A program made the position numbers and the translations under genes. A stretch of 64,000 bases of DNA from Candidatus Jordarchaeales archaeon (GTDB taxonomy: Archaea; Asgardarchaeota; Jordiarchaeia; Jordiarchaeales; Freyrarchaeaceae), in NCBI GenBank assembly GCA_038889235.1, contig JAWAHN010000002.1, forward strand, positions 104,288 through 168,287, given 5' to 3'. Below are positions 2,859-44,077 of the stretch, in pieces; the stretch's first letter is position 1; each line of letters begins with the position of its first letter. The notes under the pieces were generated by a model. The model did no database searches. It was not told the DNA's origin and saw only the letters and a list, made by a program, of their open reading frames with translations.

Positions 2859-4229
2859 TTGGTAGAAATCAGAGAAATCCTCCCTGGGCGTTTTGAAAGA
2901 ATAGGTGCTCACTCACACATAAAGGGTCTCGGGTTGCGAGGACTTAAAGCCGAACTGGTCGCCGACGGCATGGTTGGACAAACAGAGGCTAGAGAGGCGG
3001 CAGGAATAATTGTCAGAATGATAAAGGAGGGCAAGATGGCCGGCCGAGGGGTCCTGCTTGCGGGACCACCGGGGACAGGTAAGACCGCCATTGCCATCGC
3101 TATAGCTAAAGAGTTGGGTGAAGACGTTCCGGTAGTAATGATCACAGGTTCAGAGATATACTCTGAAGAGGTAAAGAAAACCGAGATCCTAACTCAGGTA
3201 TTAAGGAAGGCTATAGGGGTCAGGATACACGAAATAAAGAAAGTGTACGAGGGTGTCGTCAAAAACTTGGACATAACTATGGTGAAGAACCCCTACAACC
3301 CCTACCAACAGATCCCCCAGTCCGCGAAGATAACGATTGCCACTAAGGACGAATCCAAAACTTTCGAGGTTGGACAAACCATAGCTATACGCTTGATCAA
3401 CGAGGGAGTTAGCGTAGGCGACGTGATAATGATCGACGCAGAAACCGGCCGAGTTACACGTGTAGGGAAAGCCGAGTCCCCAGACGTCAAGAAGTATGAC
3501 ATTGAAGCGGAGAAGCCGGTTCCAGTGCCCTCGGGACCAATACTTAAGGAGAAGGAGTTCATCTATACGCTGACCCTCCATGACCTTGACGAGATAAACG
3601 CCAGAAGGAGCAGCTTCTCGATATTCAGCCTGTTTGGAGGAGGAAGAGAAGAAAAAGAAATAGACCCAGAGATACGGGAGAGAGTGAACCAGATGGTAAA
3701 GAACATGGTCGAGGAAGGGCGGGCTGAAATCCTGCCAGGCGTAGTGTTCATAGACGAAAGTCACATGCTCGACATAGAAGCATTCAGCTTCATAGCCAGA
3801 GCTATGGAGTCCGAGCTAGCACCAATAATAATACTGGCGTCGAACAGAGGGTTCGCAAAGATAAGGGGAACAGAGCTTGTGTCACCGCATGGAATGCCAC
3901 TAGATCTCCTGGATAGGCTTCTCATAATAAACACGAGGCCATACACTGAAGAAGAAATACGAGAAATACTGAAAATAAGAGCCAAGGAGGAAAAGATAGA
4001 GCTCAGCGAGGAAGCACTAGAGTACCTAACACAGATAGGAGCGAAAACCAGTCTGCGCTATGCAGTGCAGCTCCTAACCCCAAGCATGGAACACGCTAAG
4101 GAAAACGGACGCAAGAAACTAACCAAGGAAGACGTGCAAGCCGTGGAGAAACTTTTCGCTGACGTTAAGCGTTCAGCCAACTACGTGAGAAATCACGAAA
4201 AAGAGTTCATGGTTTCAGAACCAGCATAA
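2859..4229 (+). CDS. TIP49/RuvB-like AAA+ ATPase
   Basis: 456 aa. The N-terminus (ERIGAHSHIKGLGL) is typical of the TIP49 family. Walker A GPPGTGKTAIA, Walker B VVFIDESHMLD, and an inserted OB-like domain between them. Confidence 0.85.
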   Translation: MVEIREILPGRFERIGAHSHIKGLGLRGLKAELVADGMVGQTEAREAAGIIVRMIKEGKMAGRGVLLAGPPGTGKTAIAIAIAKELGEDVPVVMITGSEIYSEEVKKTEILTQVLRKAIGVRIHEIKKVYEGVVKNLDITMVKNPYNPYQQIPQSAKITIATKDESKTFEVGQTIAIRLINEGVSVGDVIMIDAETGRVTRVGKAESPDVKKYDIEAEKPVPVPSGPILKEKEFIYTLTLHDLDEINARRSSFSIFSLFGGGREEKEIDPEIRERVNQMVKNMVEEGRAEILPGVVFIDESHMLDIEAFSFIARAMESELAPIIILASNRGFAKIRGTELVSPHGMPLDLLDRLLIINTRPYTEEEIREILKIRAKEEKIELSEEALEYLTQIGAKTSLRYAVQLLTPSMEHAKENGRKKLTKEDVQAVEKLFADVKRSANYVRNHEKEFMVSEPA

Positions 4230-5705: not shown

Positions 5706-5795
5706 TGGCGGCCCCGAGGGGACTTGAACCCCTGAATTCCCGGCTTAGGAGGCCGGTGCCCTCTCAGGAACACATCCTGGCTAGGCCACGGGGCC
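5706..5795 (-). tRNA. tRNA-Arg (anticodon CCU) with a small non-canonical intron in the D-loop region; CCA encoded
   Basis: Minus-strand sequence GGCCCCG..CCGGC-CTCCTAA-GCCGG..AGGGG-TTCAAGT-CCCCT-CGGGGCC-G-CCA. It has 7-bp acceptor, anticodon stem-loop and T-arm. It is about 12 nt longer than a standard tRNA, and the excess lies in the D-loop (GTGTTCCTGAGA). Confidence 0.7.
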
Positions 5796-5908
5796 AACCA
5801 GCAGCCACACCAATAATACCTAAACAACTACTAGTTTTTTAATCCTTTCCCTTCCATAAACACCAGAAAAGTTTAAGTACAATCTCCACAATTACCCAAG
5901 ACTTGGGC

Positions 5909-6004
5909 GCGGGCGTAGTCCAGCCTGGTCTAAGACGGCGGCCTGCCACGCCGCGGACCCGGGTGGTTAACAAAAACCAGGGATTTCAAATCCCGGCGCC
6001 CGCA
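5909..6004 (+). tRNA. tRNA-Gly (anticodon GCC) with a 21-nt intron between positions 53 and 54 (5964..5984)
   Basis: Acceptor GCGGGCG/CGCCCGC with discriminator A. Anticodon arm GCGGC-CTGCCAC-GCCGC. T-stem CCGGG / CCCGG with T-loop TTCAAAT interrupted by TGGTTAACAAAAACCAGGGAT. A BHB-like fold is present: H2 ccc(g)/(a)ggg and a 4-bp intron hairpin. TATA-like tttaagta lies about 30 nt upstream. No CCA encoded. Confidence 0.7.
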
Positions 6005-6044
6005 TTAAAATCCACAAAGAAGAAATAAAATAGTGGAATTAGTG

Positions 6045-6881
6045 CTATATTTTCGTTTCCAACCATTCATCTATGTCTTTAAGGACCTTCTCTTTTTCTA
6101 GTTCATTAAGTATTTCGTGGTACAATCCCTTGTAGATTTTCATCGTGAAGTCTTTGTGTTTCACTTTCTCTGCTAGTTCCATGCTTCCTTTGGGGTTGAC
6201 TAGCTTGTCTTCTCCTGCTACTAATAATAGTGTTGGAACTTTGAGTTTGTCGGCATTTTCAAGTATTGTTTTCATGGCTTTGATGAATTCAACCGCAAAT
6301 TTGACCGTGATCGTCTTGAATATTAACGGGTCGTTGGCGTATGCTTCGCAGACTTTCTTGTCGTGGGATAGAGTGTATGGATCTATTTGGCTCGGTATCT
6401 CCTGCTTGGGGTTTGTCTTTGCAAGTTCTTCGAGCATCTTCATCGTTCCAGCGTCTACGTCGCTCGCAAGTCTCAGCGCAGGAGAGGAGAGAACTAGACA
6501 GTCGATTTTTTCCGGGTTTTTGAGCGCGTACAGCAATGCTATTGTTCCGCCCATACTGTGGCCTAAGAGGATAAGCTTCTTTTCCTTTTCTTTTTTCTTC
6601 ACCATATCGATGAACGTGTCGAGGTCTTCCACGTAGTCGTCGAAGTTGTCCACGTGTCCTCTGGCTCCCTCGGAGCGGCCGTGCCCCCTGTGGTCCAATG
6701 CGTAAAATGCTATACCTTTGCTGGCAAAGTGTTCTGCCACATGCTTATACCTTCCCGAGTACTCGGCCAAACCGTGGGCTGCAACCATTACTGCCCTAAC
6801 TTTTTCAGGTCTCCAAAACTGGTAGTATATTTTCAATCCTTCTTTTCCCTTAAACTCTCCCTCCTCATGAGCAATTTTCAC
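6045..6881 (-). CDS. alpha/beta hydrolase (lysophospholipase / monoacylglycerol lipase-like)
   Basis: 278 aa. Nucleophile elbow GHSMGG, HGxxEY region and C-terminal His. Family Hydrolase_4-like. Confidence 0.8.
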   Translation of the reverse strand: MKIAHEEGEFKGKEGLKIYYQFWRPEKVRAVMVAAHGLAEYSGRYKHVAEHFASKGIAFYALDHRGHGRSEGARGHVDNFDDYVEDLDTFIDMVKKKEKEKKLILLGHSMGGTIALLYALKNPEKIDCLVLSSPALRLASDVDAGTMKMLEELAKTNPKQEIPSQIDPYTLSHDKKVCEAYANDPLIFKTITVKFAVEFIKAMKTILENADKLKVPTLLLVAGEDKLVNPKGSMELAEKVKHKDFTMKIYKGLYHEILNELEKEKVLKDIDEWLETKI

Positions 6882-7050
6882 TTGCCTATCCCCCCACCTT
6901 TTCTGCTTAAGTGTTGGCGCTCTCCATTTGCTTTCTTTTTACTATAATTTAACTTTTATGTAGAATTTCATGTACCAGCAGCATTGAACGGTTAACGCTT
7001 GCACTGTTTGTCCAGGTTAATCAGTGCTCAGAGGAGGAAAGAAATATATA

Positions 7051-7059
7051 ACTTGACGG
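7051..7059 (+). promoter_or_regulatory. TATA box (aaatatata) about 20 nt upstream of the 5' end of the 7078..7263 RNA gene
   Basis: AT-rich box at the expected distance from the GGGGGCG RNA 5' end. Confidence 0.4.
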
Positions 7060-7077
7060 CGAATTTCTTCTCTCGAT

Positions 7078-7263
7078 GGGGGCGTAGCGCAGCTAGAACG
7101 TTTGTGGCGAAGTAGCGCGGCTGGCTCCAGAAGCAATGAGAACAAACTGGTGCGCTGATTGGGGATGATGACCTTCTGGAGCTTCGAGCCGGAGAGGAAT
7201 CCCGGAAGCACCAGTTGGTCGTGGGTTCACCCTCTCCGGGGCCTTCAAGTCCCACCGCCCCCA
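7078..7263 (+). tRNA. tRNA gene with multiple or large introns (about 186-nt locus; identity undetermined)
   Basis: Acceptor 5' GGGGGCG (7078-7084) pairs perfectly with CGCCCCC (7256-7262), followed by discriminator A. T-stem GTGGG (7221-25) / CCCAC (7251-55) with canonical T-loop TTCAAGT (7244-50). The T-loop is separated from the 5' T-stem by an 18-nt insert (7226-7243), the same architecture as the Gly tRNA. About 95 further extra nt lie between the D-stem GCGC and the T-arm. Within that insert there is an AUGAUGA (C-box-like) at 7165-71. Confidence 0.45.
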
Positions 7264-7446
7264 TCATTCTCTGCTTCCCCCAGGATTTTTCGGCTGCTTT
7301 ATCTGTCTGGTGTGTAATCCTAAGTTTTGCTTTCAACTTTCGAATGCCCTCTCGACTTGCCACTCGTCTCTGAGACCACTTGCGGGCTACCCCTTCATTT
7401 AAAAAAGATCTGTGGTGGGCGGAAGAACGAGCTGTTCGGCTTCTAG

Positions 7447-19967: not shown

Positions 19968-20171
19968 TTGATAGTTGTTGAAAAAGTTAAGAGGAATGAC
20001 GTGAGGTGCGGCAAATGCGACGCACCTCTCACATTTACCCTTATTTGGGAGAACGGAAAGTACTCTTGGACCTACGAGTGTGAAAACTGCTCGTCTGCTC
20101 AAAAACAAAAGAAGGATCTTTGTGAAGACATGAGAGATGAATTTGTTAAGAGACTTGTGAGGTCATGGTAA
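19968..20171 (+). CDS. small CxxC...CxxC zinc-finger protein, hypothetical
   Basis: 67 aa. RCGKCDAP...YECENCSS forms a Cys4 ribbon. Confidence 0.45.
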   Translation: MIVVEKVKRNDVRCGKCDAPLTFTLIWENGKYSWTYECENCSSAQKQKKDLCEDMRDEFVKRLVRSW

Positions 20172-20174
20172 TCT

Positions 20175-20756
20175 TTGCGGTTCAAGTGTCTTAAGTGTGG
20201 GAGTTGTTGTAGAGATAAAAAAACCATAGTCACATTGACTCATAAAGACATAATTAGGATCGCTGAGTTCTTGAGTTTGGACGAAAGAAGGCTTGTAAGG
20301 GATGTTCTCATTTTTTACCAAGTTGATGAAGGCCTTAAAAAGCTCCTTGCCTTCCCCTCCGTTGAAACTTTCAGAGGGGAGGCGATCATAGGATTAAGGA
20401 AAAGAGAGGACGGGTCTTGCATATTTTTGCAAGGCAACCTCTGCAGTATATACCCGGCGCGCCCCATGACATGTAGAACTTTTCCCTTCACGTTTTCCGT
20501 AAAGGAGGGATGGCTGAAGTACGGTGTTGCTACAAAGGCCAAGGAACTTTGCCCAGGACTGAACGAAGGCGAGGAGATTGACGAAAACCAGTTAGCTGAA
20601 ATAGGCTTAAGCGCGGTCACCGAACTCGAAGAGTACTCCAGAATAGCTTCGTTGTGGAAGAAGGTGGTCGAAAAAAGCATTCCCGCGATACCCGAACTGT
20701 TAGTTAGGCTCATATTGCAAGGGAAAGATGAAAAGAAAATTGCCTTGACACACTAA
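20175..20756 (+). CDS. YkgJ/UPF0153-family Fe-S or Zn cluster protein (CxxCxxCC)
   Basis: N-terminal KCLKCGSCC (CxxCxxCC), with further Cys at CIF...C...C downstream. Confidence 0.65.
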   Translation: MRFKCLKCGSCCRDKKTIVTLTHKDIIRIAEFLSLDERRLVRDVLIFYQVDEGLKKLLAFPSVETFRGEAIIGLRKREDGSCIFLQGNLCSIYPARPMTCRTFPFTFSVKEGWLKYGVATKAKELCPGLNEGEEIDENQLAEIGLSAVTELEEYSRIASLWKKVVEKSIPAIPELLVRLILQGKDEKKIALTH

Positions 20757-23022: not shown

Positions 23023-24219
23023 CTAAACTCTAGCAGTAACCCAGTTGAGAAGTGGGGGCACCTCCTCTTTCTTAGAGGACGTGAGGTACTCCACGAACGT
23101 CTTGAATATTTGTGCACTCGCTGGGTGAATCATCATGAAGACATCACACCCTACTAGTGACAGTGCTAGCGCCGTTATAGCCTCCCATATAGGCCCTCTG
23201 AACCTCTGGAGACCCCACTCGTCTCCCTTTTTCTTGTCACTCATGTAAGCCTCTCTCGCACCCCAAGCGTTGGTCGTTCCGGACGAAAGCGGCATCTGTA
23301 AGTCTGCATCCCCCTTGAGAGCTGAGAGCCTTATTCTTTCGTACACGCTGAACGAGTACTCCAACCCGTAGCCTAAAGCAGCCGTGGTTGCGTCCTGCAC
23401 AATCCTATTTTTAGGCATGCCTGCATCCATTATGAGCTTGTTAAGCTTCTTTTGGTTGTTCACGTCCAGCTGTGTCCAAGATAGAACGTTGTGCCCATAC
23501 TTCTTAGCCGCGTCAACTATCCTCTTCCAGTCAAGGTTAAGTGACGCTGAGTTGAGCATCAGTCTTTCTCCCTCGGAAACCGCAGCAGCAGCCTCGAGAA
23601 CTTCAGGGTCCTTGTCTGGGTTCCCCGACCCACCTATAAGTATTGGTGTATCGACTGCTTGCAGAACATCCTCTACGACTTTGGCCGCCTCTCTAGCAGG
23701 CGTGTTCTTAACATATGGGTCTGTGCTTATCAGATGCACTGTTACCAAGTCTGCGCCGAACTCGTTAATCGCCTTCTTAGCCCAGTCTGCTGGATCCTCC
23801 ATAACGTCTCCAAAGTGCTCCACTACAGGCTTCGGAAGGCTTATCGGCATGTCGAAAACGTCGAAAGCCACGACGGGCCTGTTAGGATTGTTGAACTCAA
23901 ACCTATAGAAAGCAGGGGCTTTCTCGCCACCGATCTTAATGACCTTCTTACGCGTGCCTCCCTCAGCTCTAGTAGCTCCAAACTGGACCTCAACTATTTC
24001 CCCTGGGTACGACTCAATTGGACGCTCGAATTTTTGCTCGATGAGGGCTGCAGGTATTCTCGCCCTAGCTGCAGGAGGGAGCGCAGCAGCGAACATTCCT
24101 GGTATAACCTTGAGAACCAATTCTTCTGCTTCTATGACGACATCTTCAAGTTCCAGCTCCTCATATTTTCCAAGAATTTCCAGTATCTTCTTGCCTAGTG
24201 CTAATTCGTCTTTAGACAT
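23023..24219 (-). CDS. cdhD: acetyl-CoA decarbonylase/synthase complex subunit delta (corrinoid Fe-S protein small subunit)
   Basis: 398 aa. Its position between cdhC and cdhE, and TIM-barrel pterin-binding-like sequence features, support the call. Confidence 0.75.
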   Translation of the reverse strand: MSKDELALGKKILEILGKYEELELEDVVIEAEELVLKVIPGMFAAALPPAARARIPAALIEQKFERPIESYPGEIVEVQFGATRAEGGTRKKVIKIGGEKAPAFYRFEFNNPNRPVVAFDVFDMPISLPKPVVEHFGDVMEDPADWAKKAINEFGADLVTVHLISTDPYVKNTPAREAAKVVEDVLQAVDTPILIGGSGNPDKDPEVLEAAAAVSEGERLMLNSASLNLDWKRIVDAAKKYGHNVLSWTQLDVNNQKKLNKLIMDAGMPKNRIVQDATTAALGYGLEYSFSVYERIRLSALKGDADLQMPLSSGTTNAWGAREAYMSDKKKGDEWGLQRFRGPIWEAITALALSLVGCDVFMMIHPASAQIFKTFVEYLTSSKKEEVPPLLNWVTARV

Positions 24220-43963: not shown

Positions 43964-44077
43964 TGGTGCGGTCGCCGGGATTTGAATTCCCGGACTTTGT
44001 GCGTCTCCCGGGTCGCAGGCTTGGAGGGCTTCCGCCCGTTTTGGTCTACGTCCTGGTCCAGGCTAGACGACGACCGC
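43964..44077 (-). tRNA. tRNA gene with 20-nt intron between positions 53 and 54 and additional insertions (identity undetermined; CCA encoded)
   Basis: On the minus strand: acceptor GCGGTCG / CGACCGC, discriminator A, then CCA. T-stem CCGGG / CCCGG with T-loop TTCAAAT, preceded by the insert AGACGCACAAAGTCCGGGAA. The insert folds as a BHB: H2 CCCG/CGGG (4 bp), bulges GGA and AAT. About 18 further extra nt upstream, including a GGGC-GGAA-GCCC tetraloop hairpin, suggest a second intron. Confidence 0.5.

Follow-up and report, generated by a model that had tools for sequence, protein, structure and literature searches.

What are the inserts that interrupt the tRNA-like loci on a contig of a Candidatus Jordarchaeales archaeon, and do those in the T-loop represent a mobile class of intron? 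The stretch analysed, hereafter the window, comprises 64,000 nt (GenBank assembly GCA_038889235.1, contig JAWAHN010000002.1, positions 104,288 to 168,287). A first-pass annotation of the window had recognised four tRNA genes, each with a non-canonical intron, and had suggested that three of them share a recurrent, possibly mobile intron at position 53/54. We conclude that the four loci are very probably functional genes for tRNA-Arg(CCU), tRNA-Gly(GCC), tRNA-Gly(UCC) and tRNA-Trp(CCA) carrying seven bulge-helix-bulge (BHB) introns, that the 37/38 intron of the Trp gene is a dual box C/D guide and that the T-loop introns were probably inherited. Judged from the cloverleaves, all but one of the seven introns occupy non-canonical positions (D-loop, 18/19, 29/30, 53/54 in two genes, and 56/57).

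A scan of both strands required U8, an acceptor stem of 7 bp, a T-stem of 5 bp and a T-loop that ends in ANY. The tRNA-like elements of the window were limited to four loci, all situated where the first-pass annotation had placed them. They had G+C-rich 7-bp acceptor stems, TTCRANY T-loops and a G+C content of 62-67%, compared with 47.7% for the window. The remaining matches of the acceptor and T-arm scan over the whole window were low-G+C noise, and high G+C together with TTCRANY occurred in these four alone. An A/T-rich TATA-like box was found upstream of each gene. Standard tools recovered little of this. In the unspliced window, ARAGORN (default and intron modes) made a single call, the Arg locus at 5706-5795, as "tRNA-???". 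The Rfam tRNA model (RF00005) detected only tRNA-Gly(GCC) at the gathering score (41.8 bits, with 27 nt inserted in its T-loop), and at E<=0.05 it found no other tRNA in the window. A covariance search was the check foreseen for the Trp locus and for the locus at 43964-44077; it gave no tRNA for the former at E<=0.05 and none for the latter even at E<=10, whereas the spliced forms of both are canonical. Once the inserts were removed, ARAGORN returned Arg(cct), Gly(gcc), Gly(tcc) and Trp(cca), all as full canonical cloverleaves.

The second line of evidence is the geometry of the junctions. In a BHB, positions -6 to -3 of the exon and of the intron form a central helix (H), 3-nt bulges hold the two nucleotides on both sides of each cut, and helices h and h′ flank the motif. 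We accepted junctions with H=4, or with H=3 and h or h′ of at least 2. All seven introns deduced from the cloverleaves passed this filter, whereas only 3.4-6.7% of the possible start/end pairs of these sequences did so. The Arg and Trp 56/57 introns belonged to the H4 class, and the Gly(GCC) 53/54, Gly(UCC) 29/30, Trp D-loop and Trp 37/38 introns had H3 with flanking helices. Thus, the presence of a non-canonical intron in each of the four genes was borne out by both the spliced forms and the junctions.

Comparison with orthologues gave the third. Orthologous loci were retrieved via neighbouring proteins. The Arg, Gly(GCC) and Trp orthologues adjoin a hydrolase gene in two related assemblies (L001; L002/L003), and the Gly(UCC) orthologues (L010-L013) adjoin a SAM synthetase gene. 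Across the loci compared (L001, L003 and L010-L016) exons were invariant, and introns varied in length and sequence. The neighbouring proteins of orthologous loci were 74-86% identical, and exon conservation and stem covariation extended also across more distant genera. In six loci from beyond the genus (L004-L009) no tRNA was found beside the hydrolase gene, and synteny ends there.

The tRNA-Gly(GCC) gene (5909..6004, plus strand, 96 nt) carries a T-loop intron of 21 nt at 53/54 (5964..5984, plus strand), with a BHB of H3 (including one conserved G.A), h2 and h′4. This cut was the best BHB solution in all three orthologues, in which the intron measures 21, 18 and 22 nt, and its position is unambiguous in L003. 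The h′ stem shows a compensatory change from GGUU/AACC to GGCU/AGCC.

The locus at 43964..44077 (minus strand, 114 nt including an encoded CCA) is the tRNA-Gly(UCC) gene, with the anticodon loop CCUCCAA at 44021-44027. It contains two introns. One of 16 nt interrupts the anticodon stem at 29/30 (44030..44045, minus strand; H3 h2 h′2 in the window and H4 h2 h′3 in L010), and one of 20 nt lies at 53/54 in the T-loop (43987..44006, minus strand; strict hBHBh′, H4 h2 h′3). The latter is one of only two strict hBHBh′ pairs among 4005 in that sequence. We enumerated every combination of up to three BHB-compatible introns and tested each with ARAGORN; a single combination out of 1670 yielded a tRNA, namely Gly(tcc). 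Both the identity of this gene and its 29/30 intron go beyond the first-pass annotation. Reading the locus as a second Trp-CCA gene with U33, or with a single intron elsewhere, was rejected, since the 5-bp anticodon stem arises solely from the 29/30 cut and the stem-loop is contiguous in L013.

The Gly(UCC) orthologues provide natural controls for both cuts. L013 lacks the 29/30 intron, and the predicted spliced stem-loop CAGGC-CCUCCAA-GCCUG is contiguous in its DNA. L011 lacks the 53/54 intron, and there CCCGGGUUCAAAUCCCGG is contiguous in the DNA. Intron sets were 29/30 plus 53/54 in the window, L010 and L012, 29/30 plus 45/46 (31 nt) in L011, and a D-loop intron plus a strict BHB intron at 59/60 in L013. 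The differing intron positions of the orthologues are evidence that introns were gained, lost or slid within the class. Intron positions thus appear to turn over slowly among orthologues.

The T-loop intron of tRNA-Trp(CCA) lies at a different position. The first-pass annotation had described inserts of 18-21 nt between the T-stem strand and a canonical T-loop in three loci, and we found all of them: 21 nt before TTCAAAT in Gly(GCC), 20 nt in Gly(UCC) and 18 nt before TTCAAGT in Trp. A T-loop intron is therefore common to three genes, and its location at 53/54 held for both Gly genes. In Trp, the cut can slide from 53/54 to 57/58 in the window, owing to a UUCA repeat, and the orthologues place it at 56/57 (7229..7246, plus strand, 18 nt; 18-21 nt among orthologues). 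A cut at 53/54 would give C54 or A56 in L001 and L003 (C54 in the former), and L003 has C56 only with a cut at 56/57 or 57/58. The BHB score agrees, with H4 h1 h′3 at 56/57 versus H2 h0 h′0 at 53/54.

Could the recurrence of T-loop introns nevertheless reflect a mobile family that was repeatedly inserted or copied at 53/54 of different tRNA genes? Several observations favour such mobility. T-loop introns occur in many tRNA species of the lineage: in addition to the three genes of the window, the Freyarchaeum genome (L014, CP147778.1) has 53/54 introns in two genes beside its Trp gene, tRNA-Asp(GUC) (2990-3132; helix CCCG:CGGG) and tRNA-Lys(UUU) (3332-3497; helix CGCG:CGCG), both with a perfect central helix and ending in AA|UUCAAAU. 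Of the Freyarchaeum genes in a published table, about half have a final intron whose end is 14-23 nt away from the 3′ end (PMC11291895). The Gly(UCC) orthologues vary between 53/54, 45/46 and 59/60, with 29/30 present or absent, as expected of introns that are gained, lost or moved. The Gly(GCC) and Gly(UCC) introns of one assembly have UGGC...AGCCAGGGAA in common, and intron transposition has been proposed in Thermoproteales (PMC4090602). The first-pass annotation had further noted that each insert ends in a near-copy of the T-stem strand. These strings (CCAGGGAT, TCCGGGAA and CCGGGGCC) are present, but the strand is part of the BHB central helix and not a copy. The intron strand of helix H (AGGG or CGGG) lies within CCAGGGAU and UCCGGGAA; it pairs with exon C48-G51 (CCCG), and it resembles a copy of the T-stem because CCCGGG is a palindrome. 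The motif must pair with the exon CCCG and changes with the exon, to CGCG in Lys and to GCCU at 56/57 in Trp (GGGU:GCCU). The shared 3′ motif is a splicing constraint and not a footprint of transposition.

Sequence similarity beyond the constrained positions points the same way. Introns of different tRNA species were 0.52-0.67 identical in pairwise comparison (short global alignments), even between the Gly genes, and showed no clear similarity outside the BHB. Among the seven window introns, similarity beyond BHB-constrained positions was found only between the paralogous Gly genes; no sequence relationship links the T-loop introns of Trp, Asp and Lys. The mature bodies of the two window Gly isoacceptors are 80% identical and their T-arms are identical, and the intron common to both genes appears to be explained by common descent or gene conversion. 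Orthologous introns hold their position across the genus while their loops diverge. Since the Gly genes are paralogues and the same type of intron occurs in other archaea, recurrence at 53/54 can be explained by shared descent without fresh insertions. We therefore regard a mobile 53/54 family as unlikely, and this part of the first-pass annotation was not upheld.

The wider occurrence of the Gly intron was assessed by scanning metagenomes for the pattern GACCCGGG-N12-40-UUCAAAUCCCGGCG. At least 120 contigs from soil and sediment matched (L017-L136). Among the matches listed there were 69 distinct Gly 53/54 introns, 67 of which have H=4, h=2 and h′ of at least 2, with the consensus A-stem/loop-CGGG-A-R. 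The first four h′ pairs were 97% paired in the listed metagenomic and six Jordarchaeia introns, versus 80% (maximum 84%) in 1000 strand shuffles. Several pair types were observed per h′ position, and covariation of h′ was seen in 74 introns. The metagenomic genes among the matches listed were Gly(GCC), Gly(UCC) and Gly(CCC), many with an extra canonical or anticodon-stem intron. On the largest of the contigs listed (1.24 Mb), the nearest named relatives of one protein were "Candidatus Bathyarchaeota" (65-68% identity), and we tentatively consider the hosts to be, probably, Bathyarchaeia-like soil archaea. This distribution, with covarying stems, fits old vertical inheritance. As the Gly 53/54 intron is common to distant archaea, it may be old rather than recently spread, with independent gain as the alternative.

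An NCBI protein labelled "Candidatus Angelobacter sp." (Acidobacteriota) is 89% identical to a protein (P0246) on the same archaeal-looking 1.24-Mb soil contig. The next named relatives are Bathyarchaeota. The name may stem from wrong binning or labelling in the public record.

The tRNA-Trp(CCA) gene (7078..7263, plus strand) spans 186 nt for a mature length of 74 nt and has three introns. The claim that this locus has its own TATA box was sustained by an A/T-rich TATA-like box at 7042-7051, about 30 nt upstream. The first-pass annotation had also attributed about 95 extra internal nucleotides to a long intron, possibly bearing a box C/D RNA. A box C/D-bearing intron is indeed present, but the extra nucleotides are divided between a 15-nt D-loop intron and a 79-nt intron at 37/38, in addition to the one in the T-loop. 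A brute-force combination of BHB candidates with ARAGORN was rejected for this locus. It was not discriminating, as it let through 816 of 236,377 combinations and read many of these as tRNAs for other amino acids; the solver works for the short genes. Intron assignment was therefore based on conservation among orthologues and on guide complementarity. Exons were invariant and introns variable in L001 and L003, and the D-stem covaried in L014 and L015.

The D-loop intron of the Trp gene (7097..7111, plus strand, 15 nt) is best placed between G18 and G19, with a possible alternative register at 7098-7110 (13 nt). It is 15, 19 or 23 nt long in the window and the hydrolase-linked orthologues and 15-41 nt among all orthologues, with conserved flanks. 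Both registers use the same 3-bp core helix (G15-Y17:GGC), which is kept in all five orthologues. With the alternative register, which reaches H4 in the window, no G18G19 remains, and we infer the 18/19 register because it leaves the canonical D-loop AGCUAGGUA. Taking the conserved GG of GGCGAAGUA as G18G19 was also considered and rejected, as it results in a 13-nt D-loop with no BHB at that junction.

The canonical 37/38 intron (7131..7209, plus strand, 79 nt) separates G37 from A38, with H3 (H4 in L001) and the anticodon stem serving as h7. It contains a C box (AUGAGAA, 7136-7142), a 12-nt D′ guide (7143-7154) and a D′ box (CUGA, 7155-7158), followed by a 6-nt linker, a C′ box (AUGAUGA, 7165-7171), a 12-nt D guide (7172-7183) and a degenerate D box (UCGA, 7184-7187), all on the plus strand. 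This order is kept in five orthologues. The AUGAUGA element previously singled out as C-box-like is thus present, but it is the C′ box, the C box being AUGAGAA. The D guide forms 11 contiguous pairs with G31-A38 and the start of the intron, which puts C34 at the N+5 position in all five orthologues. The D′ guide forms 9 contiguous pairs with the 3′ strand of the anticodon stem, which puts C39 at N+5. Both placements were obtained by script in four of five orthologues (including L001, L003 and L015) and by eye in L014. L014 and L015 have a different anticodon stem (GCAGG/CCUGY), and their D′ guide is altered accordingly, from CCAGU with ACUGG to CCUGC with GCAGG, a case of guide-target covariation. 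The consensus fold from RNAalifold was dominated by the guide-target duplex. The Trp 37/38 intron accordingly matches the known archaeal dual guide of pre-tRNA-Trp (sR40-type), and its complementarity marks C34 and C39 of its own precursor as the predicted targets.

The first-pass annotation had proposed to look for C/D box pairs with complementarity to rRNA within 7119-7215. The box pairs were found, but the guides point to the host tRNA. It is highly improbable that 7131-7209 is an ordinary trans-acting box C/D RNA for rRNA methylation lying inside a tRNA gene by chance. Its box C/D architecture with two 12-nt spacers and its weak Rfam matches to the Pyrococcus rRNA-guide families sR3, sR17 and sR23 would suit such a role. 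However, the best complementarity of both spacers is to the host pre-tRNA, N+5 falls exactly on the two positions modified by the known pre-tRNA-Trp guide, and changes in the anticodon stem between genera are matched in the D′ guide. The weak Rfam matches over 7132-7189 also include sR40 itself, whose consensus has the same box order as the Trp intron, an AUGAGNA C box and an NCGA D box (CCGA). A strict pattern scan for the Trp C/D intron in species-representative genomes returned three Jordarchaeia genomes, a count that reflects the strictness of the pattern and not the wider distribution of the intron.

An extra hairpin (7188-7206, CCGG-AGAGGAAUC-CCGG) follows the D box and precedes the 3′ splice site. 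In L003 it has undergone a compensatory change, from CCGG/CCGG to CUGG/CCAG. It may hold the BHB and the K-turn in register.

The tRNA-Arg(CCU) gene (5706..5795, minus strand, 90 nt including an encoded CCA; anticodon loop 5745-5751) is read as Arg(cct) by ARAGORN once the insert is removed. The roughly 12 extra nucleotides reported for its D-loop correspond to an excess of 10-12 nt, which we assign to an 11-nt intron (GUGUUCCUGAG, 5763..5773, minus strand) at about 20a/21, with boundaries good to about 1 nt either way. The intron is 10 nt long in the orthologues. CAGG (positions 17-19) pairs with the intron CCUG in a 4-bp helix followed by the bulge AG|A, and the 5′ site sits in a hairpin loop, giving a relaxed hBH-type motif (H4 h1 h′0). 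The helix is retained in the orthologues as CAGG:UCUG. Removal of the intron leaves the D-loop AGCCAGGAUA with G18G19. The D-stem covaries in orthologues, from G10:C25 to A10:U25 and from U13:G22 to C13:G22. The variable loop of this gene (5731-5736, minus strand) has 6 nt in the window (GAAUUC, an EcoRI palindrome) versus 5 nt (GUGUC) in L001 and L003.

Several features weigh against the conclusion that these are functional genes with BHB introns and a dual guide. Several of the junctions are relaxed: the central helix of the Gly(GCC) intron includes the conserved G.A, the Arg intron has no h′ helix and an h helix of 1 bp only, and the Trp D-loop intron lacks an h helix and is ambiguous in register by one nucleotide. 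The C and D boxes of the Trp guide are degenerate, and its match to the Pyrococcus-only sR40 model (RF01297) scored 16.5 bits (E = 3.3), far short of the gathering score of 50. Finally, Gly(UCC) has C33 in place of the near-universal U33. This substitution is invariant in five Jordarchaeia orthologues, including the uninterrupted L013; the usual loop, CUUCCAA, is found in the Bathyarchaeia-like Gly(UCC) genes that the metagenome scan recovered, and a literature search found no report of C33 in tRNA-Gly(UCC). That the loci are decaying pseudogenes or remnants with inserts of junk is hardly credible: the failure of ARAGORN and Rfam on three of the four loci, C33 and the 6-nt variable loop of the window Arg gene would be consistent with decay, but exons stay invariant and stems covary across orthologues and distant genera while the inserts diverge, a BHB-type motif bounds every insert, C33 is conserved in five genomes, and in the complete Freyarchaeum genome the sole Trp gene listed has three introns (PMC11291895).

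For the four loci as functional tRNA genes, the following course of processing is likely. The genes would be transcribed from the upstream TATA-like boxes, by analogy with established archaeal biology. Exon-intron junctions of the precursors are predicted to form a 4-bp helix with 3-nt bulges on either side, or its relaxed form. As in archaeal tRNA splicing generally, the splicing endonuclease EndA would cut within both bulges and an RtcB-type ligase would join the exons. Asgard archaea are reported to have an (alpha-beta)2 EndA with an L1 loop and broad specificity (PMC5829648). In the Trp precursor, the D guide would pair with the anticodon loop and the D′ guide with the 3′ strand of the anticodon stem, placing C34 and C39 at N+5. 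L7Ae, Nop5 and fibrillarin would assemble on the intron and direct Cm34 and Cm39 before or during splicing, as judged from Haloferax and Pyrococcus. The T-loop introns would be inherited features of tRNA families, the Gly 53/54 intron being common to distant archaea.

Intron-rich tRNA genes are already known from this lineage, in keeping with the suggestion of the first-pass annotation. Valentin-Alvarado et al. (2024, Nat Commun, PMC11291895) reported introns in 92-95% of the tRNA genes of Atabeyarchaeia and Freyarchaeia. The introns are often non-canonical, and over half of the genes have several. Freyarchaeia (= Jordarchaeia) belong to the same Asgard class as the window. Supplementary Data 4 of that paper gives three introns for Freyarchaeum Trp-CCA (213 nt), two for Arg-CCT, three for Gly-GCC and one for Gly-TCC. 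The Trp gene of Freyarchaeum is orthologous to that of the window and agrees with it in all three intron sites and in the C/D guide, and its T-loop intron and those of the Asp and Lys genes were confirmed here by sequence. Unlike Freyarchaeum, the window has one intron in Arg, one in Gly(GCC) and two in Gly(UCC), and it represents a different genus, the hydrolase being only 54% identical to that of Freyarchaeum deiterrae. No mention of the box C/D guide in the Trp intron, of a T-loop preference or of C33 was found in the accessible text of that paper.

Close parallels outside Asgard archaea are the non-canonical and multiple BHB introns found in Thermoproteales and further Crenarchaeota (Marck & Grosjean 2003; Sugahara 2008; Fujishima 2010; review PMC4090602), for which positions 20/21, 29/30, 45/46, 53/54, 56/57 and 59/60 have been catalogued (PMC4090602). 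They have the same positions, the same hBHBh′ or relaxed signal and up to three introns per gene, and they likewise need a broad-specificity EndA. The host of the window is an Asgard archaeon and not a member of TACK. Near-identical introns in unrelated tRNAs, from which transposition was deduced in Thermoproteales, were not seen among the introns compared here.

An intronic C/D guide of pre-tRNA-Trp that targets positions 34 and 39 has been found in at least 29 archaea (PMC2584109). In Haloferax, it directs Cm34 and Um39 before splicing (PMC2584109, PMC7994747). The guides of Haloferax volcanii and Pyrococcus (sR40/sR50; Clouet d'Orval 2001; Singh 2004; PMC2584109, PMC7994747) resemble the present one in their location in the 37/38 intron of tRNA-Trp(CCA), in their C, D′, C′ and D boxes with 12-nt spacers, and in the N+5 positions of the D guide (34) and the D′ guide (39). 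The degenerate C (AUGAGNA) and D (NCGA) boxes are shared with the Pyrococcus sR40 consensus. Unlike the known systems, the window pre-tRNA has two further introns, in the D-loop and the T-loop, nucleotide 39 is a C, for which Cm39 rather than Um39 is predicted, and the guide has the extra hairpin and has diverged to below the Rfam gathering score.

Some further features of the window may be recorded here. The alpha/beta hydrolase gene (6045-6881, minus strand) lies between the tRNA genes. Its product matches a protein of a Candidatus Jordarchaeales metagenome-assembled genome at 100% identity; it is 83-86% identical to other Jordarchaeales/Freyarchaeota proteins and, as noted above, far less so to that of Candidatus Freyarchaeum deiterrae. 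This places the window in the Asgard class Jordarchaeia. The 3′-CCA is encoded in tRNA-Arg (5706-5708) and tRNA-Gly(UCC) (43964-43966). It is not encoded in tRNA-Gly(GCC) (6005-6007, followed by UUA) or tRNA-Trp (7264-7266, followed by UCA), and the 3′ end of the Arg gene in L003 is CUA. Relaxed ARAGORN settings (-ps90, introns <=200 nt) added "tRNA-Thr(tgt)" at 20038-20202 with an 81-nt intron and "tRNA-Asp(atc)" at 23872-24119 with a 150-nt intron. Both were absent from the acceptor/T-arm scan and from Rfam and are probably false positives.

Since the intron-rich tRNAs of this class were published in 2024 and every intron position found here had already been catalogued, current understanding is unchanged. 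A bolder proposal is that the T-loop of Jordarchaeia (from 53/54 to 59/60) is a preferred site for landing or retention, at which BHB introns are still being gained, lost and shifted. We consider this doubtful. If it were true, Jordarchaeia would be a natural system for studying how protein-spliced introns move, and, together with C33 and the coordination of Trp methylation with three splicing events, it would imply a complexity of tRNA processing nearing that of eukaryotes. Because three of the four genes escape ARAGORN and Rfam (at the gathering score), a genome of this lineage will appear to lack tRNA-Trp, tRNA-Gly(UCC) and others when BHB-aware tools are not used. The additions made here are modest: a C/D guide in an Asgard tRNA-Trp with two introns besides the guide-bearing one, the wide occurrence and covariation of the 53/54 intron in tRNA-Gly, and the conserved C33 of Gly(UCC). 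The first of these extends the classical self-targeting C/D guide of tRNA-Trp to an Asgard lineage.

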